A stretch of DNA of 64,000 nt from Eledone cirrhosa (Eukaryota): assembly GCA_964016885.1 (NCBI GenBank), contig OZ024753.1:20708001-20772000 (forward strand). The letters are read 5' to 3'. The notes beneath the pieces were generated by a model that searched no databases, had not been told where the DNA came from, and worked only from the letters and a program-made list of their open reading frames with translations. Numbering within the stretch: the first letter of the stretch is position 1; the number at the start of each line of letters is the position of its first letter. The position numbers and the translations under genes are program-made. Below are positions 29,043 through 62,159 of this stretch, piece by piece.

Positions 29043-29076
<34 letters not shown>

Positions 29077-38000: not shown

Positions 38001-41000
38001 TGCCACAGTCTATCTATCAGTCTGTCTGTGTGTCACTGTCTATCTATAGATCTGTCTGTCTGTCACTGTCTATTGATCAATCTGTCTGTCTGCCACTGTC
38101 TATCTATCTGTCTATCTGTCACTGTCTATCAATCTGTCTGTCTGTCACTGTCTATCAATCTGTCTGTCTGTCACTGTCTATCTATCAGTCTGTCTGTGTG
38201 TCACTCTCTATCTATCGCTCTGTCTGTCTGTGTGTCACTCTCTATCTATCGCTCTGTCTGTCTGTTACTGTATATTGATCAATCTGTCTGTCTGTCTGCC
38301 ACTGTCTATCTATCTGTCTGTCACAGTCTATCTATCAATCCATCTCTCTATCTGCCACTGTCTATCTATCAATCTGTCTGTCTGCCACTGTCTATCTATC
38401 AATCTGTCTGCCTGTCACTGTCTATCTGTCTGTCTTTCTGCCACTGTCTATCTATCTCTCTGTGTGTCACTGTCTATCTATCAATCTGTCTGTCTGTCTG
38501 CCACTGTATATCTATCAATCTGTCTTTCTGCCACTGTCTATCTATCAATCTGTCTGTCTTTCACTGACCTATCTATCGGTCTGTCTCTCTCTCTCTCTGT
38601 CTGTCACTGTCTATCTATCTGTCTGTCTGTCTCTGACTATCTATCAATCTGTCTGTCTGCCACTCTCTATCTATCAATCTGTCTGTCTGTCATTGTCTAT
38701 CAATCTGTGTATCTGTCACTGTCTATCTATCAATCTGTCTGTCACTGTCTATCTATCAATCTGTCTGTCTGTCTGTCACTGTCTATCAATCTGTCGGTCT
38801 GTCACTGTCTATATCAATCGGTCTGTCTGTCACTGTCTATCTATCAATCTGGCTATCTGTCAGCGTCTATCTATCTGTCTGTCACTGACTATCTATGAAT
38901 CTGTCTGTCTGTCACTGTCTATCTATCAATCTGTCTCTCTGACCCTGTCTATCTTTCGGTCTGTCTGTCGTCTGTCTGTCTATCTGTCACTGTATCTCAG
39001 TCTGTCTGTCACTGACTATATATCAATCTGCCTGTCTGTCTGCCACTGTCTATCTATCAATCTGTCTGTCTGTCACTGTCTATCTATCAATCTGTCTGTC
39101 TGCCACTGTCTATCTATGAGTCTGTCTGTCTGCTATTGTCTATCTGTCTGTCTGTCTGTCACTGTTTATCTATCTGTCTGTCTGTCACGATCCATCTGTT
39201 GTCTGTCACTGTCTATCAATCTGTCTGTCTGTCACTGTCTATCAATCTGTCTGTCTGCCACTGTCTATCTATCTGTCTGTCTGCCATTGTCTATCCAACT
39301 GTCTGTCACTCTCTATATGTCTGTCTGCCACTGTCTATCTGTCTGTCTGTCTGTCTGCCACTGTCTATCTATCAGTCAGTCTGTCTGTCTATCTATCGGT
39401 CTGTCACTGTCTATCTATCAATCTGTCTCTCTGTCACTGTATATTGATCAATCTGTCTGTCTGTCACTGTCTATCTAACAATATGTCTGTCTGCCACTGT
39501 CTATCTATCAATCTGTCTGTCTGCCACTGTCTATCTATCAGTTTGTCTGTCATCTTCTATCTATCAAACCGTCTGTCTGCCACCGTCTATCTATCAGTCT
39601 GTCTGTCTCTCACTGTCTATCTATCAATCCGTCTGTCTGCCACAGTCTATCTATCAGTCTGTCTGTCTCTCACTGCATATCGATCAATCTGTCTGTCTGC
39701 CACTGACTATCTGTCAGTCTGTCTGTCTGTGACTGTCTATCTGCCACTGTCTATCAATCTGTCTGTCACTGTCTATCTATCAATCTGTCTGTCTGTCACT
39801 GTCTATCATACAATGTGTCTGTCTGTCACTGTCTATCTATCTCTCTGTCTGCCACTGTCTATCAATCTGTCCGTTTTTATCACTGTCTATCTATCAATAT
39901 GTTTGTCTGTCACAGTCTATCTATCTGTCTGTCTGTCTGACTGCCACTGTCTATCTATCAATCTATCTGCCTGTCACTATCTACCTATAAGTCTGTCTGT
40001 CTGTCTGCCCCTGTCTATCTCTCTCTCTGTCTGCCACTGTCTATCAACGTGTCTGTTTGTCTCTGTCTGTCTATCAATCCGTCTTTCTGCCACAGTCTAT
40101 CTATCAGTCTGTCTGTGTGTCACTGTCTATCTATCGCTCTGACTGTCTGTCATTGTCTATTGATCAATCTGTCTGTCTGCCACTGTCTATCTATCTATCT
40201 GTCTGTGTGTCTGTCTGTCACTCTCTATCTATCAATCTGTCTGTCTGCCACTGTCTATCTATCCGTCTGTCTGTCACAGTCTATCTATCAATCTATCTCT
40301 CTGTCTGCCACTGTCTATCTATCAATCTGTCTGTCAGCCACTGTCTGTCTGTCTGTCTGTCACTGTCTATCTATTTGTCTGTCTGTCACTGTCTATCTAT
40401 CAGTCTGTCTGTCAGCCACTGTTTATCTATCTGTTTGTCTGTCACTGTCTATCTATCTGTCTGTTTGTCACGGTCTATCTATCTGTCTGTCTGCCACTGT
40501 CTATCTATCAATCTGTCTATCTGTCACTGTCTGTCTATCAGTCTGTCTGTGTGTCACTCTCTATCTATTGCTCTGTCTGTCTTTCACTGTCTATTGATCA
40601 ATCTGTCTGTCTGCCACTGTCTATCTATCTGTCTGTCTGTCTGTCTGTCACTGACTATCTATCAATCTGTCTCTCTGCCACTGACTATCTATCAATCTGT
40701 CTGTCTGTCACTGTCTATCTATCAATCTGTCTGTCTGCCACTGTCTATCTATCAATCTGTCTGCCTGTCACTGTCTATCTATATGTCTGTCTGTCACTGT
40801 CTATCTATCTGTCTGTCTGTCACTGTCTATCTATCAATCTCTCTGCCACTGTCTATCTGTATGTCTGTCTGTCTGCCACTGTCTATCTATTAGTCTGTCT
40901 GTCTGTCTCTGTCTATCTATCGGTCTGTCACTGTCTATCTATCAATATGTCTCTCTGTCACTGTCTATCTATCGGTCTGTCTGTATGTCTGTCTATCTGT

Positions 41001-44000
41001 CACTGTCTATCTGTCTGTATGTCACTGACTATCTATCAATCTGTCTGTCTGTCTGTCACTGTCTATCTATCAATCTCTCTGTCTGCCACTGTCCTATCTA
41101 TCAGTCTGTCTGTCAGCCACTGTCTATCTATCTATCTGTCTGTCTGTCTGTCACTGTCTATCTGTCTGTCTGTCACTGTCTATCCATCAATCTGTCTGTC
41201 TGCCACTGTCTATCTCTCCGTATGTCTGTCAGCCATTGTCTATCTATCTGTCTGTCACTATCTATCTATCTGTCTGTCTGCCACTGTCTATCTATCAATC
41301 CGTCTGTATGTCACTGTGTATCTATCTGTCTGTCACTGTCTATCTATCAATCCGTCTCTCTGCCACAGTCTATCTATCAGTCTGTCTGTGTGTCACTGTC
41401 TATCTATAGATCTGTCTGTCTGTCACTGTCTATTGATCAATCTGTCTGTCTGCCACTGTCTATCTATCTGTCTGTCTGTCACTGTCTATCAATCTGTCTG
41501 TGTGTCACTGTCTATCTATCGCTCTGTCTGTCTGTTACTGTATATTGATCAATCTGTCTGCCACTGTCTATCTATCTGTCTGTCACAGTCTATCTATCAA
41601 TCTATCTCTCTGTCTACCACTGTCTATCTATCAATCTGTCTGTCTGTCACTGTCTATCTGTCTGTCTTTCTGCCAATGTCTATCTATCTGTCTGTGTGTC
41701 ACTGTCTATCTATCAATCTGTCTGTCTGTCTGCCATTGTATATCTATCAATCTGTCTGTCCGTCACTGTCTATCTATCCATCTGTCTGTCTGTCACTGTA
41801 TATCAATCTGTCTGTCTTTCACTGACCTATGTATCGGTCTGTCTACCTCTCTCTCTGTCTGTCACTGTCTATCTATCTGTCTGTCTGTCTCTGACTATCT
41901 ATCAATCTGTCTGTCTGCCACTCTCTATCTATCAATCTGTCTGTCTGTCACTGTCTATCAATCTGTGTATCTGTCACTGTCTATCTATCAATCTGTCTGT
42001 CACTGTCTATCTATCAATCTGTCTGTCTCTCTGTCACTGTCTATCAATCGGTCTGTCTGTCACTGTCTATCTATCAATCTGGCTGTCTGTCAGCGTCTAT
42101 ATATCTGTCTGTCACTGACTATCTATGAATCTGTCTGTCTGTCACTGTCTATCTATCAATCTGTCTCTCTGTCCCTGTCTATCTATCGGTCTGTCTGTCG
42201 TCTGTCTGTCTATCTGTCACTGTCTCTCAATATACTGTATATTGATCAATCTGTCTCTCTGACTGCCACTGTCTATCTATCTGTCTGTCACAGTCTATCT
42301 ATCAATCTGCCTGTCCGTCTGCCACTGTCTATCTATCAATCTGTCTGTCACTGTCTATCTATCAATCTGTCTGTCTGCCACTGTCTATCTATGAGTCTGT
42401 CTGTCTGCCATTGTCTATCTGTCCGTCTGTCTGTCACTGTCTATCTATCTGTCTGTCTGTCATGATCTATCTGTTGTCTGTCACTGTCTATCTCTCAATC
42501 TATCTGTCTGGTACTGTCTATATATCTGTCTGTCTGTCTGCCACTGTCTATCTATCTGTCAGTCTGTCTGTCTGTCACTGTCTATCTATCAATCTGTCTG
42601 TCTGTCAGTGTCTATCTATCTGTCTGTCTGTCTACCACTGTCTATCTATCTGTATGTCAATATGTCTGTCTGTCACTGTCTGTCTGTCTCTGTCTGTCAG
42701 TGTCTATCTATCTGTCTGTCTGTCTGCCACTGTCTATCTATCTGTATGTCTATCTGTCTCTCTGTCACTGTCTATCTATCAATCTGTCTGTCTGCCACTG
42801 TCTATCTATCAATCTGCCAGTCACTGTCCATCTATCTGTCTGTCTGTCACTGTCTATCTCTCAATCCGTCTGTCTGCCATAGTCTATCGATCAGTCTGTC
42901 TGTCTCTCCCTGCCTATCGATCAATATGTCTGTCTGCCACTGTCTATCTGTCAGTCTGTCTGTCTGTGACTTTTTATCTGCCACTGTCTATCAATCTGTC
43001 TGTCTGTCACTATCTTCCTATCAGTCTGTCTTTCTGCCCATGTCTATCCATCAATCTGTCTGTCTGTCACTGTATATCTATCAATCTGTCTGTCTGTCAC
43101 TGTCTATCTATCTCACTCTCTGCCACTGTCTATCAATCTGTCTGTTTGTCACTGTCTATCTATCAATCTGTCTGTGTGCCACAGTCTATCTATCAGTCTG
43201 TCTGTGTGTCACTGTCTATCTATCGCTCTGACTGTCTGTCAGACTCTATTGATCAATCTGTCTGTCTGCCACTGTCTATCTATCTATCTGTCTGTCTGTA
43301 TGTCACTGTCTATCTATCAATCTGTCTGTCAGCCACTGTCTATCTATCTGTCTGTCTGTCACGGTCTATTTATCTGTCTGTCTGCCACTGTCTATCTATC
43401 AATCTGTCTGTCTGTCACTGTCTATCTATCAATCCGTCTCTCTGCCACAGTCTATCTATCAGTCTGTCTGTGTGTCACTGTCTATCTATAGCTCTGTCTG
43501 TCTGTCACTGTCTATTGATCAATCTGTCTGTCTGCCACTGACTATCTATCTGTATGTCTGTCACTGTCTATCTGCTGTGTCACTGTCTATCTATCAATCC
43601 GTCTGTCTGCCACAGTCTATCTATCATTCTGTCTGTGTGTCACTGTCTATCTATCGCTCTGTCTGTCTGTCACTGTCTATCTATCAATCCGTCTGTCTGC
43701 CACAGTCTATCTATCATTCTGTCTGTCTGTCACTGTCTATCTATCGCTCTGTCTGTCTGTCACTGTCTGTCTATCAATCCGTCTGTCTGCCACAGTCTAT
43801 CTATCATTCTGTCTGTGTGTCACTGTCTATCTATCGCTCTGTCTGTCTGTCACTGTCTATCTATCAATCTGTCTGTCTGCCACTGTATATTTATCAATCT
43901 GTCTGTCCGTCACTGTCTATCTATCAATCTGTCTGTCTGTCGCCGTATATCGATCTGTCTGTCTGCCACTGGCTATCTGTCTGTCTGTCCGTCACTGTCT

Positions 44001-47000
44001 ATCTATCAATCTGTCTGTCTGACACTGTATATCAATCTGTCTGTCTGCCACTGGCTATCTATCTGTCTGTCTGTCACTGCCTATCTATTATTCTGTCTGT
44101 CCGTCACTGTCTATCTATCGGTCTGTCTCTCTCTCTGTCTGTCACTGTCTATCAATCTGTCTATCTGCCACTGTCTATCTGTCAATCTGTATGTCTGCCA
44201 CTGTCTATCTATCAATCTGACTGCCTGTTACTATCTATCTGTCTGTCACTGTCTATCTATCAATCCCTCTGTCTGCCACAGTTTATCTATCATTATGTCT
44301 GTGTGTCACTGTCTATCTGTCGCTCTGTCTGTCTGTCACTGTCTTTGATCAATCTGTCTGTCTGCCATTGTCTGTCTGTCTGTCTGTCTTTCTGCCACTG
44401 TCTATCTATGTGTCTGTCTGTCACTGTCTATCTATCAATCTGTCTGTCTGTCTGCCACTGTATATCTATCAATCTGTCTGTCCGTCACTGTCTATCTATC
44501 GCTCTGTCTGTCTGTCACCGTATATCAATCTGTCTGTCTGCCACTGGCTATCTATCCGTCTGTCTGTCCGTTACTGTCTATCTATCAATCTGTCTGTCTG
44601 ACACTGTATATCAATCTGTCTATATGCCACTGGCTATCTATCTGTCTGTTTGTCACTGTCTATCTATTATTCTGTCTGTCCGTCACTGTCTATCTATCGG
44701 TCTGTCTCTCTGTCATTCACTGTCTATCAATCTGTCTGTCTGCCACTGTATATCTATCAATCTGTCTGTCCGTCACTGTCTATCTATCAATCTGTCTGTC
44801 TGACACTGTATATCAATCTGTCTGTCTTTCACTGACCTATCTATCGGTCTGTCTGTCTCTCTCTCTGTCTGTCACTGTCTATCAATCTGTCTGTCTGCCA
44901 CTCTCTATCTATCAATATGTCTGTCTGTCTGTCACTGTCTATCAATCTGTGTATCTGTCACTGTCTATCTATCAATCTGTCTGTCACTGTCTATCTATCA
45001 ATCTGTCGGTCTGTCACTGTCTATATCAATCGGTCTGTCTGTCAGTGTCTATCTATCAATCTGGCTGTCTGTCACTGTCTATCTATCGGTCTGTCTATCG
45101 GTCTGTCTGTCTATCTGTCACTGTCTATCAATCTGTCTGTCTGTCTGTCACTGACTATCTATCAATCCGTCTGTTTGTCACTGTCTATCTATCAATCTGT
45201 CTGTCTGTCACTATCTATCAATCTGCCTGTCTCTCTGTCACTGTCTATCCATCAATCTGTCTGTCTGCCACTGTCTATCAACATGTCTGTTTGTCACTGT
45301 CTTTCTATCAATCCGTCTGTCTGCCACAGTCTATCTATCAGTCTGTCTGTGTGTCACTGTCTATCTATCGCTCTGACTTCTGTCACTGTCTATTGATCAA
45401 TCTGTCTGTCTGCCACTGTCTATCTGTCTGTCTGTCTGTATGTCACTGTCTATCTATCAATATGTCTGTCTGTCTGTCACTGTCTATCTATCTGTCTGTT
45501 TGTCACGGTATATCTATCTGTCTGTCTGCCACTGTCTATCTATCAATCGGTCTGTTGTCACTGTCTATCTATCTGTCTGTCACTGTCTATCTATCAATCT
45601 TTCGGTCTGCCACTATCTATCTGTCTGTCACTCTCTATCTATCAATCCGTCTGTCTGCCACAGTCTATCTATCGCTCTGTCTGTCTGTCACTGTCTATTG
45701 ATCAATCTGTCTGTCTATCTATCAATCTGTCTGTCTGTCACCGTATATCAATCTGTCTGTCTGCCACTGGCTATCTATCTGTCTGTCTGTCCCTCACTGT
45801 CTATCTATCAATCTGTCTGTTTGACACTGTATATCAATCTGTCTGTCTGGCACTGGCTATCTATCGGTCTGTCTGTCTCTCTCTCTGTCTGCCACTGTCT
45901 ATCAATCTGTCTGTCTGTCTGTCTCTGACTATCTATCAATCTGTCTGTCTGCCACTCTCTATCTATCATTCTGTCTGTCTGTCTGTCACTGTCTATCAAT
46001 CTGTCTGTCTGTCACTGTCTATCTACCAATCTGTCACTGTCTATCTATCAATCTATCTGTCTGTCTGTCGCTGTCTATATCAATCTGTCTGTCTGTCACT
46101 GACTATCTATGAATCTGTCTGTCTGTCACTGTCTATCTATCAATCTGTCTGTCACTATCTATCTATCGGTCTGTCTGTCGGTTTGTGTGTCTGTCTATCT
46201 GTCTGTCTTTTACTGACTATCTATCAATCTGTCTGTCTGTTTGCCGATGTCTATCTATCAATCTGTCTGTCTGTCACTGTTTATCTATCAATATGTCTGT
46301 CTGCCATGTCTATCTATCTGTCTGTCTGCCACTGTCTATCTATCTGTATATCTATCTGTCACTGTCTAGCTATCAATCTGTCTGTCTGTCACTGTCTATC
46401 TATCTCTCTGTCTGTCTGTCACTGTCTATCTATCAATCTGTCTGTCTGCCATGTCTATCTATCAATCTGTCTGTCTGTCACTGTCTATCTATCTCTCTGT
46501 CTGCCACTGTCTATCAATCTATCTGTTTGTCACTGTGTATCTATCAATCTGTCTGTCTGTCACAATCTATCTATCTGTCTGTCTGTCTGACACTGTCTAT
46601 CTATCAATGTGTCTGTATGTCAGTATCTACCTATCAGTCTGTCTGTCTGCCCCTGTCTATCCATCAATCTGTCTGTCTGTCACTGTCTATCTATCAATCT
46701 GTCTGTCACTATCTATCTATATCTCTCTCTGTCTGCCACTGTCTATCAACCTGTCTGTTTGTCACTGTCTGTCTATCAGTCTGTCTGGCTGCCACTATAT
46801 ATCTATCAATCTGTCTGCCTGTCACTGTCTATCTATCTGTCTGTCTGTCTCTGTCTATCTATCAATCTTTCTGCCTGTCACTCTCTATCTATCTGTCTGT
46901 CTGTCACTGTCCATCTATCAATCCGTCTGTCTGCCACAGTCTATCTATCAGTATGTCTGTCTGTCACTGTCTATTGATCAATCTGTCTATCACTGCCTGT

Positions 47001-50000
47001 CTGTCTGTCACTGTCTATCTGTCTGTCTGTCTGCCACTCTCTATCTATGAATTTGTCTGTCTGTCTGTCACTGACTATCAATCTGTCGGTCGGTCACTGC
47101 CTATATCAATCCGTCTGTCTGTCACAGTCTATCTATCAATCTGTCCTTCTGTCACTGTCTATCAATCTATCGGTCTGTCACTGTCTATATCAATCCGTCT
47201 GTATGTCACTGACTATCTACGAATCTGTCTGTCTGTCACTGTCTATCTATCAATCTGTCTCTCTGTCACTGTCTATCTATCGGTCTGACTGTCGGTCTGT
47301 CTGTCTATCTGTCACTGTCTATCAATCTGTCTGTCTGTCTGTCTGTCATGGACTATCTATCAATCTGTCTGTCTGTCTGCCACTCTCTATCTATCAATCT
47401 GTCAGTCTGCCACTGTCCATCTATCAATCTGTCTGTCTGTCAGTGTCTATCTCTCTGTCTGTCTGTCTGTCTGTCTGCCTGCCACTGTCTATCTATCTGT
47501 ATGTCTATCTGTCTGTCTGTCACTGTCTAGCTATCAATCTCTCTGTCTGCCACTGTCTATCTATCAATCTGTCTGTCTATCACTGTCTATCTATCTCTCT
47601 GTCTGTCTGTCACTGTCTAACTATCAATCTGTCTGTCTGCCACTGTCTATCTATCAATCTGCCTGTCACTGTCCATCTATATGTCTGTCTGTCACTGTCT
47701 ATCTATCAATCTGTCTGTCTGCCACAGTCTATCTATCTGTCTGTCTGTCACTGTCTATCCATCGGTCTGTCTGTCTCTCACTGCCTATCGATCAATCTGT
47801 CTGTTTGCCACTGTCTATCTGTCAGTCTGTCTCTCTGTGAATGTCTATCTGCCACTGTCTATCAATCTGTCTGTCACTGTCTATCTAACAATCTGTCTGT
47901 CTGTCACTATCTACCTATCAGTCTGTCTTTCTGCCCCTGTCTATCCATCAATCTGTCTGTCTGTCACTGTCTATCTATCAATCTGTCTGTCTGCCACTGT
48001 CTATCAAACTGTCTGTCTGTCTGTCACTGTCTATCTATCAATATGTCTGCCAATGTCTATCAATCTGTCTGTCTGTCTCTGTCTATCTGTCTGTCTGTCT
48101 GCCACTCTCTATCTATGAATCTGTCTGTCTGTCACTGTCCATCAATCTGTCTGTCTGTCACTGTCATTCTATCAATCTATCTGTCTGCCACTGTCTATCT
48201 CTGAGTCTGTCTGTCTGCCACTGTCTATCTATATGTCTGTCTGTCTGTCACTGTCTATCTATCAATCTGTCTGTCTGGCACTGTCTATCTATCTGTCTGT
48301 CTATCTGCGACTGTCTATCTATCTGTCTGTCTGTCACTCTCTATCCATCAATCTGTCTGTCTGTCACTGTCTATCTATCAATCTGTCTGTCACTATCTAT
48401 CTATATCTCTCTCTGTCTGCCACTGTCTATCAACCTGTCGGTTTGTCACTGTCTATCTATCAATCTGTCTGTCACTGTCTATCTATATCTCTCTCTGTCT
48501 GCCACTGTCTATCAACCTGTCTGTTTGTCACTGTCTGTCTATCAGTCTGTCTGGCTGCCACTATATATCTATCAATCTGTCTGCCTGTCACTGTCTATCT
48601 ATCTGTCTGTCTGTCTCTGTCTATCTATCAATCTTTCTGCCTGTCACTCTCTATCTATCTGTCTGTCTGTCTGTCACTGTCCATTTATCAATCCGTCTGT
48701 CTGCCACAGTCTATCTATCAGTCTGTCTGTCTGTCACTGTCTATTGATCAATCTGTCTATCACTGCCTGTCTGTCTGTCACTGTCTATCTGTCTGTATGT
48801 CTGCCACTCTCTATCTATGAATTTGTCTGTCTGTCTGTCACTGTCTATCAATCTGTCGGTCGGTCACTGCCTATATCAATCCGTCTGTCTGTCACAGTCT
48901 ATCTATCAATCTGTCCTTCTGTCACTGTCTATCAATCTATCGGTCTGTCACTGTCTATATCAATCCGTCTGTATGTCACTGACTATCTACGAATCTGTCT
49001 GTCTGTCACTGTCTATCTATCAATCTGTCTCTCTGTCATTGTCTATCTATCGGTCTGACTGTCGGTCTGTCTGTCTATCTGTCACTGTCTATCAATCTGT
49101 CTGTCTGTCTGTCATGGACTATCTATCAATCTGTCTGTCTGTCTGCCACTCTCTATCTATCAATCTGTCAGTCTGCCACTGTCCATCTATCAATCTGTCT
49201 GTCTGTCAGTGTCTATCTCTCTGTCTGTCTGTCTGCCTGCCACTGTCTATCTATCTGCATGTCTATCTGTCTGTCTGTCACTCTCTAGCTATCAATCTCT
49301 CTGTCTGCCACTGTCTATCTATCAATCTGTCTGTCTGTCACTGTCTATCTATCTCTCTGTCTGTCTGTCACTGTCTATCTATCAATCTGTCTGTCTGCCA
49401 CTGTCTATCTATCAATCTGCCTGTCACTGTCCATCTATATGTCTGTCTGTCACTGTCTATCTATCAATCCGTCTGTCTGCCACCGTCTATCTATCAGTCT
49501 GTCTGTCTCTCACTGTTTCTCTATCAATCCGACCGTCTGCCACAGTCTATCTATCAGTCTGTCTGTCTGTCACTGTCTATCCATCGGTCTGTCTGTCTCT
49601 CACTGCCTATCGATCAATCTGTCTGTTTGCCACTGTCTATCTGTCAGTCTGTCTCTCTGTGACTGTCTATCTGCCACTGTCTATCAATCTGTCTGTCACT
49701 GTCTATCTAACAATCTGTCTGTCTGTCACTATCTACCTATCAGTCTGTCTTTCTGCCCCTGTCTATCCATCAATCTGTCTGTCTGTCACTGTCTATCTAT
49801 CAATCTGTCTGTCTGTCACTGTCTATCTATCAATCTGTCTGTCTGCCACTGTCTATCAAACTGTCTGTCTGTCTGTCACTGTCTATCTATCAATATGTCT
49901 GCCAATGTCTATCAATATGTCTGTCTGTCTCTGTCTATCTGTCTGTCTGTCTGCCACTCTCTATCTATGAATCTGTCTGTCTGTCACTGTCCATCAATCT

Positions 50001-50739
50001 GTCTGTCTGTCACTGTCTATCTATCAATCTATCTGTCTGCCACTGTCTATCTCTGAGTCTGTCTGTCTGCCACTGTCTATCTATATGTCTGTTTGTCTGT
50101 CACTGTCTATCTATCAATCTGTCTGTCTGGCACTGTCTATCCATCTATCTGTCTATCTGCGACTGTCTATCTATCTGTCTGTCTGTCACTGTCTATCTAT
50201 CAATGTGTCTGTCTGTCACTGTCTATCTTTCAATGTGTCTGTCTGTCACTGTCCTATATATCAATGTGTCTGTCTGCCACTGTCTTTCTATATGTCTGTC
50301 TGTCTGGCACTGTCTATCTATTAATCTGTATGTCTGCCACTGTCCATCAATCTGTCTGTCTGTCAGTGTCTATCTATCTGTCTATCTATCAATCTGTCTG
50401 TCTATCAGTGTCTATCTATCTGTCTATCTGCCACTGTCTATCTATCTGTATGTCTATCTGTCTGTCTGTCACTGTCTAGCTATCAATTTGTCTGTCTGTC
50501 ACTGTCTATCTATCTCTCTATCTGTCTGTCACTGTCTATCTATCAATCTGTCTGTCTAGCACTGTCTATCTATCAATCTGCCTGTCACTCTCCATCTATC
50601 TGTCTGTCTCTCACTGTCTATCTATCAATCCGTCTGTCTGCCACCGTCTATATATCAATCTGTCTGTCTCTCACTGTCTATCTATGAATCCGTCTGTCTG
50701 CCACTGTCTGTCTATCCGTCTGTCTGTCTGTCACTGTCT

Positions 50740-51372
50740 ATCCATCCTCATCCTTCTTCCGAAATGATATCGGAAGAAACGGACCAGTTGTTGGCCAGAG
50801 AGAAAGGTGTCTGACCTCAGTCCTTTCAGACGCGTCCACCACACAACCTCTTTCGCCATGGTTATTACGCACAGAAACACCGCCTCTCCTTCGTTTTTGA
50901 AGAGGGGAGGCGGCTTGATCGTTACAATAGACTCGGTGGTCAACCGGATCGGTCCCACCCTTGACAGCAGTTGTTCGACATAGCCCCACAGATCGGCAAT
51001 GCACGAGCAGTGTACCAATGCGTGTGCAACGGTTTCCTCGTCGCACACGCATCTGGGACAGATCTTTTTCGATGGGTCCCTACCCGGGCGCCCGTGTCTG
51101 TAGAGCCTTTCTCGAACGGGCAGAGCCCTTCTGTAGCATTGCCAGGCCAGGGACCTCTGGAAGTTATCCATGGGTCTCGGGCTGAATGTCCTACCGAACA
51201 GGTTGGCCAGTTCGTCTTCCTCCATGCCTAGGGCTTCTCGGAGGGCGTCATCGCACCTCCTAACCACCAGCCCTCTATAGAATGACGAGGTGGATTCTCC
51301 ACTGACAGCCGGGTCCGCCTGCCAGAGAGCCGTGAGCGCCTGGGCACACTCGGTTTGCCAGGCGCCCAGTTT
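50740..51372 (-). mobile_element. Internal Tx1/L1-clade LINE ORF2 C-terminal fragment, inverted, inside the satellite
   Basis: ORF 50731-51267 (DNFQRSLAWQCYR...CPRCVCDEETVAHALVHC) is a close paralogue of about 60260-60880. Confidence 0.93.
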
Positions 51373-52188
51373 TTGATAGATAGACAGTCACAAACAGACA
51401 TATTGATAGACAGTGGCAGACAAACCGATTGATGGATAGACAGGGGCAGAAAGACAGACTGATAGGTAGATAGTGACAGACAGACAGATTGATAGACAGT
51501 GGCAGATAGAAAGATTAATAGATAGACAGTCACAGACAGATAGATAGACAGTGGGAGACAGACAGATTGATTGATAGACAGTGAGAGAGAGACAGAGCGA
51601 TAGATAGACAGTGACAGACAGACAGACAGACAGATAGATAGATGGATAGACAGGGGCAGAAAGACAGACTGATAGGTAGATAGTGACAGACAGACAGATT
51701 GATAGACAGTGGCAGATAGAAAGATTAATAGATAGACAGTCACAGACAGATACATAGACAGTGGGAGACAGACAGATTGATTGATAGACAGTGAGAGAGA
51801 GACAGAGCGATAGATAGACAGTGACAGACAGACAGACTGATAGATAGACTGTTGCAGGCAGACGATTTGATAGATAGACAGTGACAGACAGACAGACAGA
51901 TAGATAGATGGACAGTGACAGGCAGATTGATAGATAGACCGTGACATACAGACAGAGAGATAGATAGACAGTGACAGACAGACAGATTGATAGATAGACA
52001 GTGGCAGACAGACAGATTGATAGATAGACAGTGACAGACAGATTGATAGATAGACAGTGGCAGACAGCCAGATTGAGATAGACAGTGACAGACAGACAGA
52101 TTGATTGACAGTGACAGACAGACAGACAGACAGACAGATAGAGAGTGACAGACAGACAGAGAGATAGATAGACAGTGACAGACAGACA
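51373..52188 (-). repeat. Inverted segment of the satellite (GATA/GACA on the + strand)
   Basis: Reads GATAGATAGACAGTGACAGACAG. Polarity flips back at GACAGACA|ATCTGTCTG near 52188. Internal 210-bp duplication (51431 vs 51641). Confidence 0.95.
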
Positions 52189-54890
52189 ATCTGTCTGCCA
52201 CTGTCTATCTATCAATCTGTCTGTCTGTCACTGTCTATCTATCAATCTGTCTGTCTGTCACTATCTATCTATCAATCTGTCTCTCTATCACTGTCTATCT
52301 ATCAGTCTGTCTGTCGGTCTATCTGTCACTGTCTCTCAATCTGTCTGTCTGTCACTGACTATCTATCAATCTGTCTGTCTGTCTGCCACTGTCTATCTAT
52401 CAATCTGTCTGTCTGTCTGCCACTGTCTATCTATCAATATGTCTCTCTGTCACTGTCTATCTATCGGTCTGTCTGTCTGTCACCGTATATCAATCTGTCT
52501 GTCTGCCACTGGCTATCTATCTGTCTGTCTGTCACTGTCTATCTATCGATCTGTCTGTCTGTCTGCCACTGTCTATCTATCAATCTGTCTGTCTGTCTGC
52601 CACTGTCTATCTATCAATATGTCTCTCTGTCACTGTCTATCTATCGGTCTGTCTGTCTGTCACCGTATATCAATCTGTCTGTCTGCCACTGGCTATCAAT
52701 CTATCTGTCTGACACTGTCTATCTATCAATCAGTATGTCTGCCACTGTCAATCAAACTGTCTGTCTGTCTGTCACTGTCTATCTATCAATCTGTCTGCCA
52801 CTGTGTACCAATGTGTGTGTCTGTCTGTCACTGTCTATCTGTCTGTCTGTCTGCCACTGTCTATCAATCTGTCTGTCACTGTCTATCTATCAATCTGTCT
52901 GTCACTGTCTATCTATCAATCTGTCTGTCTGCCTGTCTGTCACTGTCTATCAATCTGTCGGTCTGTCACTGTCTATATCAATCTGCCTGTCTGTCACTGT
53001 CTATCTATCAGTCTGTCTGTCGGCTGTCTGTCTATCTGTCACTGTCTATCAATCTGTCTGTCACTGTCTATCAATCCGTCTGTCTGTCTGCCACTGTCTA
53101 TCTATCAATCTGTCTGTCTGTCACTGTCTATCTATCAATCTGTCTGTCTGTCTGCCACTGTCTATCTATCAATCTGTCTGTCTGTCTGTCACTGTCTATC
53201 TATCAATCTGTCTGTCTGTCTGCCACTGTCTATCTATCAATCTGTCTGTCTGTCTGCCACTGTCTGTCTGTCTGCCACTGTCTATCTATCAATCTGTCTG
53301 TCTGTCTGCCACTGTCTATCTATCAATCTGGCTGTCTGTCACCATCTATCTATCTGTCTGTCACTGTCTATCTATCAATCTGTCTGCCTGTCACTGTCTA
53401 TCTATCACTGTCTATCTATCAGTCTGTCTGTCTGTCTATCTGTCACTGTCTATCAATCTGTCTGTCTGTCACTGACTATCTATCAATCTGTCTGTCTGTC
53501 TGCCACTGTCTATCTATTAATCTGTCTGTCTGTTTGCCACTGTCTATCTATCAATATGTCTCTCTGTCACTGTCTATCTATCTGTCTGTCTGTCTGTCTG
53601 TCACTGTCTATCTATCGGTCCGTCTGTCTCTCACTCTCTATCTATCAATCTGTCTGTCTGTTTGCCACTGTCTATCTATCAATATGTCTCTCTGTCACTG
53701 TCTTTCTATCTGTCTGTCTGTCTGTCTGTCTGTCACTGTCTATCTATCGGTCTGTCTGTCTCTCACTCTCTATCGATCAATCTGTCTGTCTACCACTGTC
53801 TATCTATCTGACTGTCTGTCTGTCTGTCACTGTCTATCGATCAATCTGTCTGTCTGTCTCTGTCTATCTGTCTGTCTGTCACTGTCTATCTCTCCGTCTG
53901 TCTGTCGCTGTCTATATATCTGTCTGTCTGTCACTGTCTATCTATCAATATGTCTGTCTCTCGCAGTTGTTTCTATCAATCTGTCTGTCACTGTCTATCT
54001 ATCAGTCTCTCTGTCACTGTCTATCTATCAGTCTGTCTGTCTGCCACTGTCTATCTATCTCTTTGTCTGTCTGTCAATCTCTATCTAGCTGTCTGTCTGT
54101 CACTGTCTATCTATGTGTCTTTTTGTCTGTCTGTCACTGTCTATCTATCGGTCTGTCTGTCTGTCTGTCACTGTCTATCTTTCAATCTGTCTGTCTGTCA
54201 CTGTCTATCTTTCAATCTGTCTGTCTGCCACTGTCTATCTATCTGTCTGTCTGTCTGTCACTGACTATCTATCAATCTGTCTGTCTACCACTGTGTATCT
54301 ATTAATTTGTCTGTCTGCCACTGTCTATCTATCAATCTGTCTGTATGTCACTGTCTATCTGTCTGTCACTGTCTATCTATCTGTCTATCTGTCTGCCTGC
54401 CACTGTCTATCTGTCTGTCTGCCACTGTCTATCTGTCTGTCTGCCACTGTCTATCTATCAATATGTCTGTCTGCCACTGTCTATCTATCTTCTGTCTGAC
54501 TGTCACTGTCTATCTATCTATCTGTCTGTCTGGCACTGTCTGTCTATCAATCTGTCTGTCTGCCACTGTCTATCCATCTGTCTATCTATCAGTCTGTCTG
54601 TCTGCCACTGTCTATCTATCAATCTGTCTGTCTGTCTGTTACTGTCTATCCATCTGTCTGTCTGTCTGTCACTGTCTATCTATCTGTCTGTCACTGTCTA
54701 TCTATCTGTCTGTCACTGTCTATCTATCTGTCTGTCACTGTCTATCTATCTGTCTGTCACTGTCTATCTATCAATCTGTCTGTCTGCCACTGTCTATCTC
54801 TCTGTCTGTCACTGTCTATCTATTAATCTGTCTGTCTGCCACTGTCTATCAATCTGTCTGTCTGTCACTGTCTATCTATCTGTCTGTATG

Positions 54891-54896
54891 TCAGTT
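54891..54896 (+). promoter_or_regulatory. Initiator-like TCAGTT at the LINE 5' boundary
   Basis: Matches the TCAGTY Inr consensus exactly where the satellite ends. A short motif that could be chance. Confidence 0.35.
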
Positions 54897-55550
54897 GTTG
54901 ATAGTGGACGTCTTTAACATCGGCTCTTCGATTTTGAATCACTACTTGGTTATTTGTGAGTGTGTTATTTTAATTGTGTTACTATTGTTGACTCTAACCC
55001 CTCGTCCGGGACTGTAGACGTAGGGTAAATATATTTTCGCCCCTTTTGGGGTGAACATCTTTAATTTAAAATGTTTATTGATATCGTTAAAAACGAGCAA
55101 GCCATATTGCAAGCTAACGCCACTCCCACCAAAAAAAAGAGAGAAAGAGGGAACAACAATTCAAACTGTTGAACTACCCCTCCTCTCGAATGGAAAAAAC
55201 ACTGTTAATTTGAGTGAAAACCCAAATTTTGAAAAAGGTAACAGGGAAAAAAATACCAGAAAAAATGGAATTAATAAAACCAACAACATTGCAACAACAA
55301 ACAACAATGAACGAAACGAAAACAACAAAACAGCAAAATTTCTTTTGCCCCAACGGTAAAAAAAACGATCGAATACAAACCCATAGACATTACTAACGCT
55401 AAGCAAAACTTACTAAATGCCAGAAAATACGTATCTTTTGGGGAGGATGGTTCTTTTACGATCAACTCCTCAGAAGAAGTTCGTCAACAGGCATACAGGA
55501 ATACTATATCTTTCAGGACTATATCCAACGCAACAAGAAAACCAGCTCAA

Positions 55551-56369
55551 TTGACAGAAAGTCAAATTGAGCTGGTTCTGAAAGACATAAAAAAAGACAT
55601 ACTCTTTATTGAAAGAGGAAAGCTTTATGCCAGCATTATGGTCCGAATGAAGGACCAAATGCTGGCTCGAAAATGCTCAGTGGCACCTATAGTGTCACCA
55701 CAATACACCTTCTTCCCCACATATAAAGGAAGAAGAACACAAAGACTAAGAATGTGGAGCTCAACGCCAGAAGTAGATATCTGGTCCGTCCTGACAGGAT
55801 TCACGGACCTAGAAAAGGACATTCTAATATCAGCAGGTGAGTCCACCAGTGGACTGTTCGAGGGGAAAAGTCTGAAGGTTCTCATACAGATGACACCAGA
55901 GAGAATCGCCGGAATACCCAACCGAGTACTACTGGATGGTTCAACCTTTATTAATATTACGGTGGAAGGCAGGAGGCCCTCATGTTACCACTGCGCTGGA
56001 AGAGGTCACCCGCGGACTGCCTGCCCTCTACTAACAACAAAAAAAAACACTGCTACAAACACCACAACAACAACAAAAACAACCAGCACCACCACCACAA
56101 AAACAACAAAATACACAACAATCACCACCACCACCACAACGACAACAAAAACTAACAAGACCACCTCCAGCACCACCACCACAACAACAACAAAAACAAA
56201 AGAGCACGAAACAAATCAGTCACACCCACCCACCCCACACAGAAAACAATCAAAAATACACACACCAACACAACACTACCACAAAATATCCCCCTACCCG
56301 CGAACACGGACGAAAACCTCCTTACATCGGAGCATAGCGAAGATGAAGGAGAGCCGTTCCGACCAGTAA
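55551..56369 (+). CDS. LINE ORF1 (gag-like nucleic-acid-binding protein), main open segment
   Basis: VEGRRPSCYHCAGRGHPRTACP = CX2CX4HX4C knuckle, followed by a Thr-rich tract. ORF1 probably extended from about 55265 to about 56820 before frameshifts. Confidence 0.85.
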   Translation: MTESQIELVLKDIKKDILFIERGKLYASIMVRMKDQMLARKCSVAPIVSPQYTFFPTYKGRRTQRLRMWSSTPEVDIWSVLTGFTDLEKDILISAGESTSGLFEGKSLKVLIQMTPERIAGIPNRVLLDGSTFINITVEGRRPSCYHCAGRGHPRTACPLLTTKKNTATNTTTTTKTTSTTTTKTTKYTTITTTTTTTTKTNKTTSSTTTTTTTKTKEHETNQSHPPTPHRKQSKIHTPTQHYHKISPYPRTRTKTSLHRSIAKMKESRSDQ

Positions 56370-56874
56370 AAAGGAAAAAAAGGAAACATACCACTAACAG
56401 AAACCAAACAAACACAGAAGAAACCAACACAACACAAAGCACCCCTCCCCATTACACAACACTAACAGCGTCACAGAAAAAAATATTACAGTACACTTAC
56501 ATCAACAAACAAAACAAAAAACTGCTGAATATAATAAAACAGCAACCCTTCGGTTTGCACTGAAGGGCCAAATTTTAAGACAGTGGATGACTCTCCACAC
56601 CTCAAAATGATAAAGGTCCCCATGAACCTTTATCAAACTTTAAAAAACATTTATAAAGAGGACGTGGGGCCCCCCTGTAACAAACCGTTTAACCGCGCCC
56701 TCTTAAAAAGTTACCCACCCCTTCCTCAGACACCCACACAACTCCAAATACCCCAACCCCACCACACACTAATACCCCACCCCCACCCAACAACCCCTCC
56801 ACCACCCCCATGGAAACTGAACAGCCCGGACTCCGGGACGCAGAGAGGTAAGTGCCTCTTTCTTTACCACCAAC

Positions 56875-58945
56875 ATGGCTGTGTTAAGAGTAGGTTGTCT
56901 AAATGCGCGTGGCTTGGACTCACCTTGGAAGCAAGCTAAACTTCTAAATGACCTCAGGTCACGAGGTATAAATGTGATGGTTATTTGGGGGGGGGACTGG
57001 AATGGTATCCTAGATGCACGTTGGGACTAAGTAGGGGCATGTCCCGATAGAGGGGGGTGTAACAACCTCAAGGGGTTAATCGGCCGATTTGACCTGGCCG
57101 ATAGATATCGACTAGATTTTCCGACTGTGCCAACCTGGACTTGGACAAACCACAGTGGTCAATCTAGATCGTACCTGGATAGGTTCTTAGTTAGAATTAA
57201 GGATAGGGACTTTTTAAGTTGTCCAGAAATGCTCATGGTGCTCTATTCAGACCACAAGTTAGTGACCTGCGCAGTCCACCTTGATAGAACGCATAGGCAG
57301 AGACCTAGTTACTGGAAGCTCAACTTGTCCTTACCGGCAAGTAGAGCTTACAGGGACCGGATTAGAACCTTAGTTAAGGAGCGGTTGACGGGCGCCATCG
57401 TCAACAGCAGGTGGTGGGGCTCTCTGAAAAGAGAGATTAGAGTAGTTTCAATAGGAGATAGTAAGGAGTTAACCTCAGATAGAAATAGGAAGGAAAGGGA
57501 GTTGGTAGTTAATGTTGAAGAGGCAATGAGAAGCGGCAACGTGGCCAGAGTGCTACGTTGAGAACGGCCTTGAGCCAGTTCTTCGACGCGAAACACGAAG
57601 GCTGCGTTGTCCGAAGCAAAATACGTGCTCTGGGAAACGAGGGGACCAAAGCTGTTAGCTGGGCCCGCGTGACAGAAGCCAAAAGTGGGATTAGATCCAC
57701 TATCCGGTCTTTGCGAGACCAGGATGGACGGGTGATCCTTTAACCTAAGCAAATGTGCGAGGCTTTTCAAAGGTAGTTTGCCCGATTGTTTGGGAGGGGC
57801 GGGGGGCCAGTTGGGATGTGGATTTCGGTCCATACCTCGACGGCCTGCCGCGTCTTTCGGACGAGGAGGCAAGGTCCTGCGACAGGCCGATCTCAGCTGC
57901 TGAAATAGGGGACGTGCTAAGCTTATGCGGCAAACGCAAATCTCCAGGCCTCGATGGTCTGCCCTACGAACTATATATTAATATGCCGGACTTGTTCCCC
58001 GATCTCCTCGAGGCGGTCTACTGCAACTGGCAACAGAACGGGAGAATTCTCTGTTTTATGACCAAGGGTGTAGTCTTGCTAGTGAGGAAGGACGAGTACA
58101 AGGGGGATGACATTAGTAATTTTAGGGCCATAACTCTGCTAAATGCAGAGTTAAAGATTTTGACCAAGGTGTTAGCGAAGAGATTGGCGCTTGTCGTGCG
58201 GGGCCTGGTGGGAGATGCGCAGACATGCGCTATCCCATCCAGGTCCATCCACGACAACCTCCACCTCATGCGATACGTCATAGAGAGGGTTGGGAACAAA
58301 CCCGGCTTTGGTGGGGCCCTGATAAATTTAGATCAGTCTAAAGCTTTCGATAGGGTGGATCATGGTTACCTGGATGTGGTGCTAGCAGCGGCTGGTTTCG
58401 GACCCGTTTTCAGGGGCTGGATCACTGCCATGCATAGCAGCCGTATCTGCTCTAGAGTCAAGGTGAACGGCTACCTCTCGGAGCCGTTCGAAATCACCCG
58501 CTCCATCCGACTGGGGTGCCCTTTCTCCTCTCTTCTGTATGTATTGGCTCTCGAGCCACTACTGCGGAAGTTGGAGTTGTTGCAGGGCATCCCTTTGGAA
58601 CCGAGATTGCGCAAAGCGGTGTCGGCCTACGCCGATGACGTAACAGTAATGGTGTCGACCACTGCGGAAATCGAGGCAATCGGCACCTTACTGGAGGAGT
58701 ACGAAAGGTTGACAGGGGCTAAGCTGAACCGGGACAAGTCAGTCGCTTTCCAACTCGGCGAGTGGAGGGGCAAACCGATGTCGTCCGACGGTATTGTCGA
58801 GCGGTGGACGGAGGGCCCGGTGAAGTTGCTTGGGGTCTGGTTCGGACCGGACCTCCAGGTGGAGAAAAACTGGGGTGAGGTGATGAATAGGGTGCTTGCA
58901 CTGACCCAGAAGTGGGCCGAGTGCAAACTATCCCTGAAAGGTCGG
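56875..58945 (+). pseudogene. LINE ORF2 copy A (APE with internal deletion plus RT), disrupted
   Basis: ATG at 56875 (MAVLRVGCLNARGL). ORF pieces 57127-57561, 57558-57743 and 57755-58945 with YADD. Stops and frameshifts. Confidence 0.9.
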
Positions 58946-59283
58946 CCAAATTTTAAGACAGTGGATGACTCTCCACACCTCAAAATGATAAAGGTCCCCA
59001 TGAACCTTTATCAAACTTTAAAAAATGTTTATAAAGAGGACGTGGGGCCCCCCTGTAACAAACCGTTTAACCGCGTCCCCTTAAAAGGTTACCCACCCCC
59101 CTCCTCAGACACCCACACAACTCCAAATACCCCAACCCCACCACACACTAATGCCCCCACACCACCACAAACCACCACCCCACTCAACTACCCCTCCCCC
59201 ACCCCCATGGAAGTTGCACGTCCCGGGCCCCGGGACGTAGAGAGGTTGGTGTTTTTTCTTTTTTCTTCCCCTTCGCCGCCAAC

Positions 59284-60976
59284 ATGGCTGTGTTGAGAGA
59301 GGGTTGCCTGAATACGCGTGGCCTGGGCGCAGTTTGGAAGCAAGCTAAGCTCCTAAATGACCTCAGGTCACGCGTTATAAATGTGATGGTTATTTGCGAG
59401 ACCCGGATCAGCAGCGTGCGCAAACTTTGATGACTTTGAGATGCACGCATCTCCCTGTCAGCCCGGAGGTGGGGGTGGGTTTGTTGTTCTGCTGCAAAAA
59501 CATCTGGGTCTCGCCACACAGATGGTAGACCTGGACCCGGAGGGTCGACTGGTGGTCTTAGACGTTGGCAGTGGTGAAGGTGGAGTCTTTAGGCTGGTCG
59601 CCGCCTACGTCATTTTGGGTCCGCGTGGCCGGACATCTTCCAACGTCTGGAGTCTTTTCTGGAAATCGGGGCAATCGCACCTTACTGGAGGAGTACGAAA
59701 GGTTGACAAGGGCTAAGCTGAACTGGGACAAGTCAGTTGCTTTGCAACTCGCCGAGTGGAGGGGCAAACCGATGCCGTCCGACGGTGGATGGAGGGCCCG
59801 GTGTAGTTGCTTGGGGTCTGATTCGGTCCGGACGTCCAGGTGGAGAAAAACTGGGGTGAGGTTACGAATAGGGTGTTTGCACTGACCCAGAAGTGGGCCG
59901 GTGCAAACTATCCCTGAAAGGTTGGGCGGAGGTGGTGAACTCTTACATAGTGTCCGTCATCTATTACCACTTGACTGTCGTGCCTTGCCCGGGTGAGATC
60001 CTCACCAAAATGGAGTGCGCTCTCTTTCAATTCCTTTGGAAGAAGAGGTCTCCTCTAGTGAGGAGATCCATCTGCTGTCAAGACCCTTTGAAAGGAGGGC
60101 TGGGGATGCCGTGGCTAAAAATGCGTATACACGCATTGAGGCTACAGAACCTCCAAGTATTCCTCACCGGTCAACCGGTGTGGGTCCCGTTTGTGAGGCG
60201 AGCATTCCCGAGGCTCGTCTCGCTCACCGAGCTGCAGTCCTGGGTGAAGCAAAGACCGAGAAAACTGGGTGACTGGCACACCAAGTGTGCCCAGGCGCTC
60301 ACGGCTCTCTGGCAGGTGGACCCGGCTATCGGTGGAGACTCCACCTCATCTTTCTATAGAGGGCTGGTGGTCAGCAGGTGCGACGACGCCTAGGCATGGA
60401 GGAGGACGAACTGGCCAGCCTATTCGGTAGGACTTTCGGCCCGAGACCTATGGACAACTTCCAGAAGTCCTTGGCCTGGCAGTGCTACCGAGGGGCTCTG
60501 TCCGTTCGGGATAAGCTCAACAGACACGGTCGCCCAGGTAGGGACCCCTCGAAAAAGATCTGTCCCAGATGCGTGCGCGACGAGGAAACCGTCGCGCACG
60601 CATTGGTACACTGCCGGGCGTTGCCGATCTGTGGGGCTATGTCGAACAACTGCTGTCACGGGTCGGACCAATTAGGTTGACCACCGAGTCCATTGTAACG
60701 ATCAAGCCGCCTCCCTCCTTCAAAAATGAAGGAGAGGCGGTCTTCCTCTGTGTAATAGCCATAGTAAAAGAGGTTGTATGGTGGACGCGTCTAAAAGGGC
60801 TGAGGTCGGACACCTTTCTTTCCGGCCAACAACTAGGCCTTTTCTTCTGTTACCATTTCGGAAGAAGGATCAGGATGGAAAGAGAGGTGCTCCACCCCAG
60901 CCAGTTTTATGAAAGGTGGGTGAAAGTTGCGAGAATGGCCCGTGTGAATGGGCCTTCTCTCTACCTCAGCCTGTAG
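59284..60976 (+). pseudogene. LINE ORF2 copy B (APE N-terminus joined to post-RT and C-terminal region), disrupted
   Basis: ATG at 59284 (MAVLREGCLNTRGL..ICETR..DPEGRLVVLDV), then a jump at about 59670 to LLEEYERLT, KLSLKG, GGLGMP and the Zn finger. Stop at 60976. Confidence 0.88.
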
Positions 60977-61200
60977 GTGGAAAAGGATGAAGGAAGAAGG
61001 GAGCAGCCTCTCTTTGTGCTCCCGTAGAGAAGGGTCGCACATTTTTTTTCGGGGGTGTGTGTGACCCCAAGACGATCCCTCCCTATTGAGGACCTTTTTG
61101 TTATAATTTTATTTATTACATTTTTTTACTTGATTTCTATGTACCCCCCCCCCATGTAGGTGTCCCTTTCTTTTGTGCCCTCGTGGCAAATAAATAGAAA

Positions 61201-61305
61201 TTTATCTATCTGCCTGTCTGTCTGTCTGTCTCTCTATCCATCTATCTGTCTGTCTGTCTCTCTATCCATCTGTCTGTCTGTCTGTCTCTCTATCTATCTG
61301 TCTGT
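61201..61305 (+). repeat. (TCTA)/(TCTG) tract between two Tx1 copies
   Basis: Directly visible. Confidence 0.95.
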
Positions 61306-61840
61306 GGCGGTGGGACCAATCCAGTTGACCACCGAGTCCATTGTCATGATCAAACCGCCACTCTCCTTCAAAAACAAGGGAGAGGCGGTTTTCCTATGTG
61401 TTATGGCTATGGTGGACGAGATTAAAAGGGCTGAGGTCAGGCACCTTTCTCTCCGGCGAGCAACTGATTCGTTTTTTCAAATATCATTTTGGAAGAATAA
61501 TCAGGATGGAGAGAGAGGTGCTGTACCCCAGCAAGTTTTATGAAAGATGGGTGAATGTGGCAAAGATGGTCCGAGTGGTTGGGCCTTCTCTCTATATAAG
61601 CCTGTAGGTTGAGGAAAAAGAGGAAGAGAGGAAGGGAGTACTCACTCTTGGTGCTCCTGGAGATGAGGGTTGTACATTTTTTCGGGATGTGTACAACCCT
61701 GTGTAACGCCTCCCCCCTATTGGGGATATCAATTGTTATTTGTTATTTTATTAATAGTTTTATTTTCATATACCTGTATGTAAACTCCCCATTTGTATTT
61801 GTCCCCTCCTTTTGTGCCCTTGTGGCTAATAAAGAAATTT
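61306..61840 (+). mobile_element. 5'-truncated, more divergent Tx1/L1-clade copy (ORF2 end plus 3' UTR)
   Basis: GPIQLTTESIV..KPP..GEAVFLCV, WWTRLKGLRS...GPSLYISL. AATAAA at 61828-61833, then TTTATCTATCTATCT. Confidence 0.9.
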
Positions 61841-62159
61841 ATATATTTATCTATCTATCTCTCTATATATTTGACTCTATGTCAAATACTACGAATTATT
61901 CTGCATTATAAATTAGATAGAAATCTTTATACTTTTAATATTTATTTTTAGTTTTCTTTTAGATTTTACTTTCTATTTTGAATTTTTGATCTATACTGGG
62001 TGTGTGTGTGGGGGTGGGGGTGGGGGGGGGGGGGGGGATGTGAAAGGTCTCACACTGCGACCTCTTCTTCGTCTTCTCCTTCTCCTTCTTCTTTGGTAAT
62101 ACTTAAATTTTAAAATCAATGGACATTGCATGATTTCCTAAAGCTCTCCTTCCTGCAAC

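Follow-up and report, generated by a model that had tools for sequence, protein, structure and literature searches.

Background

Microsatellites serve as insertion targets for several groups of long interspersed nuclear elements (LINEs); the repeats named as targets comprise AC, ACAY, TC, TTC, TAA, TTCC, TTTC and TG (PMC3747384, PMC4494074, PMC13282606, PMC10294476, PMC4640811, PMC3812793, PMC1950540, PMC7265360). Kibi and Koshi occupy (TC)n and (TTC)n, respectively, in teleost fish, and crocodilian Tx1 elements are found in (TTCC)n/(TTTC)n (PMC4494074; PMC3812793). Other elements lie within DNA transposon-like repeats, namely Tx1L in Tx1D of Xenopus and Tx1-Mar in Mariner-N4_AMi (PMC4494074). 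Waldo, Mino and Dong are directed to ACAY, AC and TAA repeats, in a source that describes the mechanism of microsatellite targeting by LINEs with an APE-type endonuclease as "not well understood" (PMC3812793). A β-hairpin loop is a specificity element of such endonucleases (PMC1950540). Here we analyze a stretch of 64,000 nucleotides of Eledone cirrhosa (assembly GCA_964016885.1, contig OZ024753.1, positions 20,708,001 to 20,772,000), hereafter the window, in which three LINE blocks border a TCTA/TCTG-rich satellite. All three consist of decayed copies from a large L1/Tx1-type non-LTR (non-long-terminal-repeat) retrotransposon clade, which very probably directs its insertion, by means of its APE endonuclease, to the motif TRTCT in a single orientation. 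The original prediction made from this DNA had proposed that the LINE either targets (TCTA/TCTG)n or lays down a (TATC)n tail, and that it forms a feedback loop with the satellite.

Genome-wide association of termini with TCTA/TCTG repeats

The 3.0-Gb genome was searched with a terminus pattern containing no flank sequence, alongside reversed-pattern controls. The pattern matched 21,491 times and the controls not once. The motif TRTCT lies 1–4 bases downstream of 16,669 of these 21,491 termini (78%), while its opposite strand (AGAYA) occupies the same place at 11. A narrower pattern gave 1,474 matches, and from the 100 listed on contig C1 those at places 2–81 were taken with 7 kb each, the first being excluded because it is not this element. 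The resulting 80 termini fall into three main families of 35, 31 and 10 copies, with 4 singletons. When a flank is scored by the presence of at least two TCTR units (TCTA or TCTG) within 16 bases of the junction, sense repeats are present on the 5' side of all 26 full-length copies of family C and all 8 of family A (34/34, one of them also scoring antisense), and on the 3' side of 26/26 and 5/8, respectively (31/34). The per-strand background, taken from 199,680 windows in 20 random 10-kb stretches of 11 large contigs, is 0.31% and 0.34%. Among the best-scoring full-length copies of family A, 37 of 39 are sense and one is antisense. The proposed link between this LINE and the repeats is thus borne out by a tabulation of flanks against background, with TCTR at 34/34 5' flanks of full-length copies versus 0.3% and an orientation of 16,669 versus 11.

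Such a distribution might in principle arise if copies inserted at random and survived preferentially in repeat-rich DNA, as passive accumulation near microsatellites has been described for Waldo-A/B (PMC3812793). However, survival cannot generate a base-exact phase together with the 16,669:11 strand bias, and family C, which is young (median identity 97.7%), already has 26/26 copies on the repeat. We regard this explanation as extremely improbable.

Target-specific Tx1 families have been delineated as those in which more than 20% of flanks are of one sequence kind (PMC4494074); here, one kind accounts for the flanks of 78% of termini and of all 34 full-length copies on the 5' side. The few copies that sit in (TC)n (L188, L276 and L181) are a minority and do not amount to the target of Kibi or Koshi. 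The clade resembles these two in being an APE-type element with two open reading frames (ORFs) in the pyrimidine-rich strand of a microsatellite, with related families on differing repeats, and differs from them in targeting TCTA/TCTG (ATT in sister families) with more than 21,000 termini. The original prediction knew of no described Tx1 family specific to GATA/GACA, and no such target was found in the literature searched, a corpus that did not cover Repbase/Dfam. In two other organisms as well, the same terminus is followed by TATCTATC, as read from one or two contigs per organism. On the whole, the window elements belong with the microsatellite-targeting Tx1-type LINEs already described, and the genome-wide feature is strong.

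Truncated copies and the origin of the flanking repeat

The alternative that the repeat is a tail made by the element, with the reverse transcriptase (RT) laying down (TATC)n anywhere and thereby seeding microsatellites, draws on the lack of poly(A), on 3' repeat runs of up to 80 bases, and on the first TTTRTC past the terminus, which agrees with the element variant even in copies whose flank otherwise differs (L133, L097, L086). The few bases past the terminus are therefore probably element-borne. The evidence bearing on the remainder of the repeat comes from 5'-truncated copies. The starting set comprised 139 termini, namely the 80 from contig C1 and a sample drawn from 27,605 matches; 9 of the 139 could not be placed in a family. 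We excluded copies that were full-length, edge-limited or of the ATT families, a single match of 31 bases, and 9 copies in which the element extends farther upstream. This left 27 copies of TCTR families that are apparently truncated, along with 6 copies of family B. Repeats occur at the 5' junction of 12 of the 27 in sense and of none in antisense. A duplication score of at least 10 was obtained for 13/27, compared with 5.6 in flank permutations (p = 0.0001), and the target-site duplications at truncated copies span 14–19 bp. Some of these consist of non-repeat sequence (19 bp in L259, 16 bp in L280 and 14–15 bp in L287) and begin 0–2 bases past the terminus; the family B copy L152 carries a non-repeat duplication as well, of about 18 bp. 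A tail cannot explain either the repeats at these 5' junctions or the non-repeat duplications, and many 3' runs are only 0–8 bases long (7/8 in family F). Taken together, the duplications and sense repeats at truncated copies suggest that the repeat is mostly a pre-existing target with a short motif, and that the element-borne tail is confined to a few bases. Target choice is favored over an element-made tail by the locus-specific duplications in truncated copies. Thus, of the two options originally put forward, targeting stands, and the (TATC)n tail, beyond a few bases, does not; we consider its general form very unlikely. L154, which at first resembled a clean 12-bp duplication, was set aside: an entire subfamily of 8 copies begins invariably with TCAG, so that L154 may be an internal deletion.

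Several observations weigh against endonuclease-driven targeting of TRTCT. The motif is missing within 4 bases of 4,822 of the 21,491 termini, which may reflect decay, other targets or off-target insertion; the samples come mainly from one contig; and the 31-kb array, rich in the motif, holds no insertion. In 15 of the 27 apparently truncated copies, two TCTR units are missing from the 5' junction; by eye, five of these copies are not true truncations (L155, L188 and L193 with a variant 5' region, L180 with an inserted repeat and L294 with a divergent ORF1) and four show a duplication instead of TCTR. Six truncated copies fit nothing (L236, L267, L275, L284, L285 and L286). Finally, full-length copies show no locus-specific duplication, scoring 8.0 versus 8.9 in permutations for family A, 20.4 versus 20.2 for C and 7.3 versus 7.8 for B, so that the repeats on their 5' side cannot serve as independent evidence for targeting.

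Copies of the clade also stack upon each other. Another terminus lies at most 120 bases upstream in 10/31 copies of family C and 7/14 of family D, as scored by a loose pattern that has 23 occurrences per 200 kb of random DNA, and tandem trains have copies 8–110 bases apart. A smaller form of feedback is therefore present, in that copies insert beside each other's 3' ends. A long train of six termini on one strand, spaced 5.7–7.1 kb apart as for copies of full-length size, was observed at G000:C1:4228980-4259391. Two copies 216 kb apart on G000:C3 (L070 and L072) share the 5' flank and insertion point and have different 3' flanks, and are likely to represent a segmental duplication with a later rearrangement.

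Architecture and affinities of the element

Intact genomic copies encode an ORF1 of 593–625 amino acids and an ORF2 of 1163–1167 amino acids; 11 of the 119 loci screened have an ORF of at least 1100 amino acids, and intact ORFs are seen in copies L133, L134 and L141. In L133 and L134, ORF2 contains PF03372 (APE), PF00078 (RT) and PF13966, the last slightly below the cut-off, and the zf-CCHC match in ORF1 is weak. The catalytic endonuclease motifs are retained in all families. Among solved proteins, ORF2 is best matched by human L1 ORF2 (E 2e-49 over 850 residues), and the match to R2 (E 1e-22) covers the RT only. Thus, the features of the L1 group are all present: an ORF2 with APE, RT and zinc modules beside a separate ORF1, an ORF2 nearer to L1 than to R2, 5' truncation and target-site duplications. 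This architecture and behavior make membership of the Tx1 clade likely. The RT tree on which the families were placed has 41 rows, the only named relative among them being one protein of Argonauta hians, with 68% identity in the RT. Waldo, Mino and Dong are assigned to the R1 and R4 clades. They share with the window elements a specificity for microsatellites, and Dong also the TAA/ATT target of the sister families, but they belong to other clades, the window ORF2 being nearest to L1 among solved structures. The repeat annotation of an octopus lists 80 L1-Tx1 families covering 56 Mb, 13 of them recently active, and its main text does not use the word "target", nor was a target analysis found there (PMC13282606); these families probably include relatives of those in the window.

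The family C copies L155, L188 and L193 have a differing 5' region, suggesting that 5' untranslated regions (UTRs) are swapped among subfamilies, and chimeras were also seen in L147, L166, L179, L270, L271 and L297.

TCTA and TCTG variants and the role of the RNA ends

Within family A, the terminal bases covary with the flank: TAGA accompanies TATC in 10 copies and CAGA accompanies TGTC in 30, with no discordance among the 40 scored of 47 examined. The association persists past the first unit, where the counts are 6:4 versus 3:22 (p = 0.007 by Fisher's test). The majority endonuclease sequences of the two variants differ at few positions, none of which lies in the β-hairpin loop. This loop differs between the ATT and TCTR families and not clearly between TCTA and TCTG families, and in view of this lack of a consistent difference it was rejected as the cause of the choice between TCTA and TCTG.

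These observations bear on a reading in which the target is set mainly by RNA ends that copy the parental flank, the endonuclease having little specificity; it is compatible with a TRTCT preference of the endonuclease. In its support, the terminus and flank agree in 40/40 family A copies, also beyond the first unit, with near-identical endonucleases; the 15 bases in front of family B are near-invariant (24/28) though its 3' flank matches them in only 9/28; and there are precedents in the annealing of SART1 at the 3' end (PMC7265360) and of R2 at the 5' end (PMC3774820). On the other hand, the family A copies are kin and may record one or two events: the tree of the variants needs 5 changes, of which starred branches force only 2, so that the terminus-flank link is weak. 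A discordant copy, L074, lies outside the scored set. Furthermore, 5'-truncated copies are still on TRTCT, and the endonuclease loop of the ATT families differs, as choice by the protein predicts. We accordingly treat the RNA-set target as possible but doubtful.

Similarity to R2 and SART1 extends to the uniform 5' junctions of full-length copies, which are variable in truncated ones, and to a short target-like 3' end of the RNA. R2 elements retain upstream 28S sequence on their RNA (PMC3774820), and SART1/R1 RNAs anneal at the 3' end (PMC7265360). The window clade differs from R2 in its endonuclease class and in that no HDV-like ribozyme was found: there was no Rfam match beyond chance in L156 (whole) or L138:700-1500, and no match in 13 5' ends to a descriptor of the ribozyme, which a divergent ribozyme could escape.

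Sister families and switched targets

In the RT tree, the TCTA/TCTG families and family B form one starred clade (100/99), to which the (ATT)n-targeting families and the Argonauta protein are sister (82/93); RT identity among the related families is 70–87%. Copies of these sister LINE families with the same terminus were observed in (ATT)n at L233-L260 and L299-L305, often in tandem about 6 kb apart. Family B targets a 71-bp (32+39) minisatellite carried by a repeat that is bounded by terminal inverted repeats and, in L160, measures about 0.8 kb; the shared downstream end of this repeat is found within 400 bases in 16/36. The position of the family among TCTA/TCTG lineages suggests a recent switch of target. 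Tx1L and Tx1-Mar offer a close parallel, as family B likewise occupies repeated sequence within a small element that resembles a DNA transposon and has terminal inverted repeats; it differs in having a minisatellite of 71 bp as its target and in its nested position among TCTA/TCTG families. The dispersed repeat of about 0.8 kb, which resembles a miniature inverted-repeat transposable element, was observed in L160 (G000:C1:73833626-73840626) and also in L152, L157-L159, L192 and L200. A further short repeat with a constant end motif, presumably a short interspersed element or an RTE end, interrupts several LINE copies (L160, L180, L247, L297).

Full-length copies of family B appear to carry a piece of target. 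In 24 of 28 copies, the 15 bases that precede the element differ from a single sequence by at most one mismatch, the 3' flank matches this 15-mer in 9/28, and in 6 the copy's own 3' flank equals its own 5' flank. The simplest reading, by analogy with R2, is that the RNA of family B includes the old duplicated target and would anneal through it to the new site. The first bases of family B form 10 of 10 Watson-Crick pairs with the upstream 15-mer copy. When fold-back was scored on one copy per family for 13 5' types, pairing with the upstream copy amounted to 8 pairs in family H, 6 in C, and 5 in A(TCTA) and K; family I has a predicted 11-pair stem inside the element, and no 5' stem above its own null was found in D, E, A', ATT1 or ATT2. 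These five types argue against a 5' hairpin as a requirement for targeting, which was rejected, and so does the GTGG/GTAG variant of family A, which goes with the less well pairing flank. The fold-back could protect or process the RNA, could let the cDNA prime itself, or could be the neutral product of snap-back or quasi-palindrome correction; an 8-base snap-back is present at the truncated 5' end of L178.

Fixed 5' segments resembling decayed TCTG/TCTA repeats, as if they were older captured targets, were noted in L007, L116, L272 and L274. Most 5' ends contain, 7–12 bases inside the element, a word (RGACGT) that resembles the downstream promoter element; it is absent in family E and the ATT families. 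As a lead only, such a word would imply that transcription begins within the target.

Layout of the window and the status of the satellite

The satellite totals about 35 kb, in 19410-50746 and 51373-54892. The main array (19410..50746, plus strand) consists of 26–30 bp units of TCTG/TCTA plus CACTG, with higher-order periods of about 3.27 and 1.66 kb. Block 1 (50734..51373, minus strand) is an internal ORF2 fragment from the zf-RVT region that lacks the 3' end, matches 60261-60886 at 87% identity and is 96% identical to family G. Its 5'-truncation point at 51373 abuts the satellite, which has sense polarity there; at the 50734 side the block is broken within ORF2, and the adjoining repeat has the opposite polarity. 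With the inverted satellite piece at 51373..52188 (minus strand), block 1 forms one inversion (50734-52188), and the interpretation of position 50740 as an outer element end was therefore rejected.

A further satellite piece (52190..54892, plus strand) lies directly 5' of block 2, which is of family A and comprises two copies. The first, block 2a (54897..58945, plus strand), has an intact 5' end starting with GTTGATAG, separated from the satellite by 4 extra bases. Its ORF1 is frameshifted, with a CCHC knuckle near 55983; ORF2 starts at 56875, has lost about 300 bases of the endonuclease at 56987/56991 and retains the RT domain to 58945. Comparison with the full-length genomic copy L061 shows 54897-56987 and 56991-58945 to be one copy, at 93–95% identity. 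Block 2b (58944..61204, plus strand) is joined to it at a short shared word, and TCTA/TCTG is absent at this internal joint (58944). It combines the last part of ORF1 and the first part of ORF2 (58944-59660) with the C-terminus of ORF2, 3' UTR and terminus (59661-61204), an internal deletion of about 1.7 kb relative to L061 lying between them. Its 3' terminus (61177-61200) enters TCTA/TCTG without poly(A) (61177..61212, plus strand). A TCTG/TCTA microsatellite spacer (61205..61305, plus strand) with a 28-bp sub-repeat and without the CACTG motif separates it from the next tandem copy. This is block 3 (61309..61842, plus strand), a 5'-truncated copy 89–94% identical to family F that consists of the end of ORF2, the 3' UTR and the terminus (61816-61837), followed by a short TA and a TCTA run.

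Direct reading confirms that all six junctions named in the original prediction adjoin TCTA/TCTG sequence, and that both 3' ends pass from AATAAA-(TA)GAAA-TTTAT into TCTATC and lack poly(A), with the same polarity as the main satellite. Four of the six lie in or at the 35-kb TCTA/TCTG-rich array, so the window by itself is weak proof and the genome-wide counts carry the claim. The three blocks do not represent one family, as had been supposed, belonging rather to the three subfamilies G, A and F. Left of the satellite, sequence at 17400-18200 resembles by eye a decayed minus-strand LINE with an RT, and 10408-10567 matches the family G reference sequence at 73% over 166 bases, which may reflect another repeat within that reference.

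The proposal that LINE and satellite feed each other takes its appeal from the two copies whose 5' junctions lie on the satellite in sense (51373, 54892) and from the TCTG/TCTA content of the units. The satellite is, however, confined to this locus while the clade has more than 21,000 termini: all 100 genome matches of a satellite 29-mer, and 349 of 351 of a 19-mer, fall in the window. Termini followed by the satellite CACTGTCTAT motif number five genome-wide, none of them at this locus. The satellite lies on the 5' side, not the 3' side, of the two copies that properly touch it, no 3' end runs into it, no LINE piece was found in 19000-50733, and the higher-order periods, being of kilobase length, suggest that the array expanded in the ordinary way. 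We therefore find the feedback loop most improbable, and likewise reject a satellite seeded by the LINE tail, given the single-locus motif, the 5' placement and the array free of LINE pieces. The satellite is an ordinary local expansion of TCTA/TCTG-rich DNA, struck at its edge by the LINE.

Proposed mechanism and implications

If insertion is driven by the endonuclease, APE would nick the GAYA (GATA/GACA) strand at the start of TRTCT, and reverse transcription would begin at the RNA end just past AATAAA-x-GAAA, helped by a few paired bases. A cut of the second strand 14–19 bases downstream would give the duplication seen at truncated copies, and full-length copies would finish by annealing a carried copy of the target, as best seen in family B. 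The minimal site would be short, TATCT/TGTCT and sometimes TATAT; microsatellites would then be targeted because they are dense in this motif, and each insertion would duplicate its site and so give rise to tandem trains. Full-length RNAs would begin upstream, within the duplicated target, and would probably extend a few bases into the target at the other end, and both ends could anneal to a new site, as proposed for the R2 5' and SART1 3' ends. A later inversion and deletions would have produced the present layout of the window.

A more far-reaching possibility, which we think unlikely, is that the RNA helps to choose the target, as both of its ends carry a copy of the target or its complement and the 5' end folds on the captured copy, and that the preference is inherited through these few bases and can therefore switch, from TCTA to TCTG and on to a transposon minisatellite, at a higher rate than that at which the endonuclease changes.

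The families described here bring together in one genome related lineages that have four different targets, that number thousands of copies each and that include intact young ones, so that the question of whether a protein loop or RNA pairing selects the target becomes directly testable in them. As far as the literature searched extends, GATA/GACA is added to the list of targets, and, among the TCTA/TCTG microsatellite markers of this animal, many are hot spots of insertion beside repeats. Should the RNA-guided reading be true, these elements would constitute a natural, re-addressable APE retrotransposon system.

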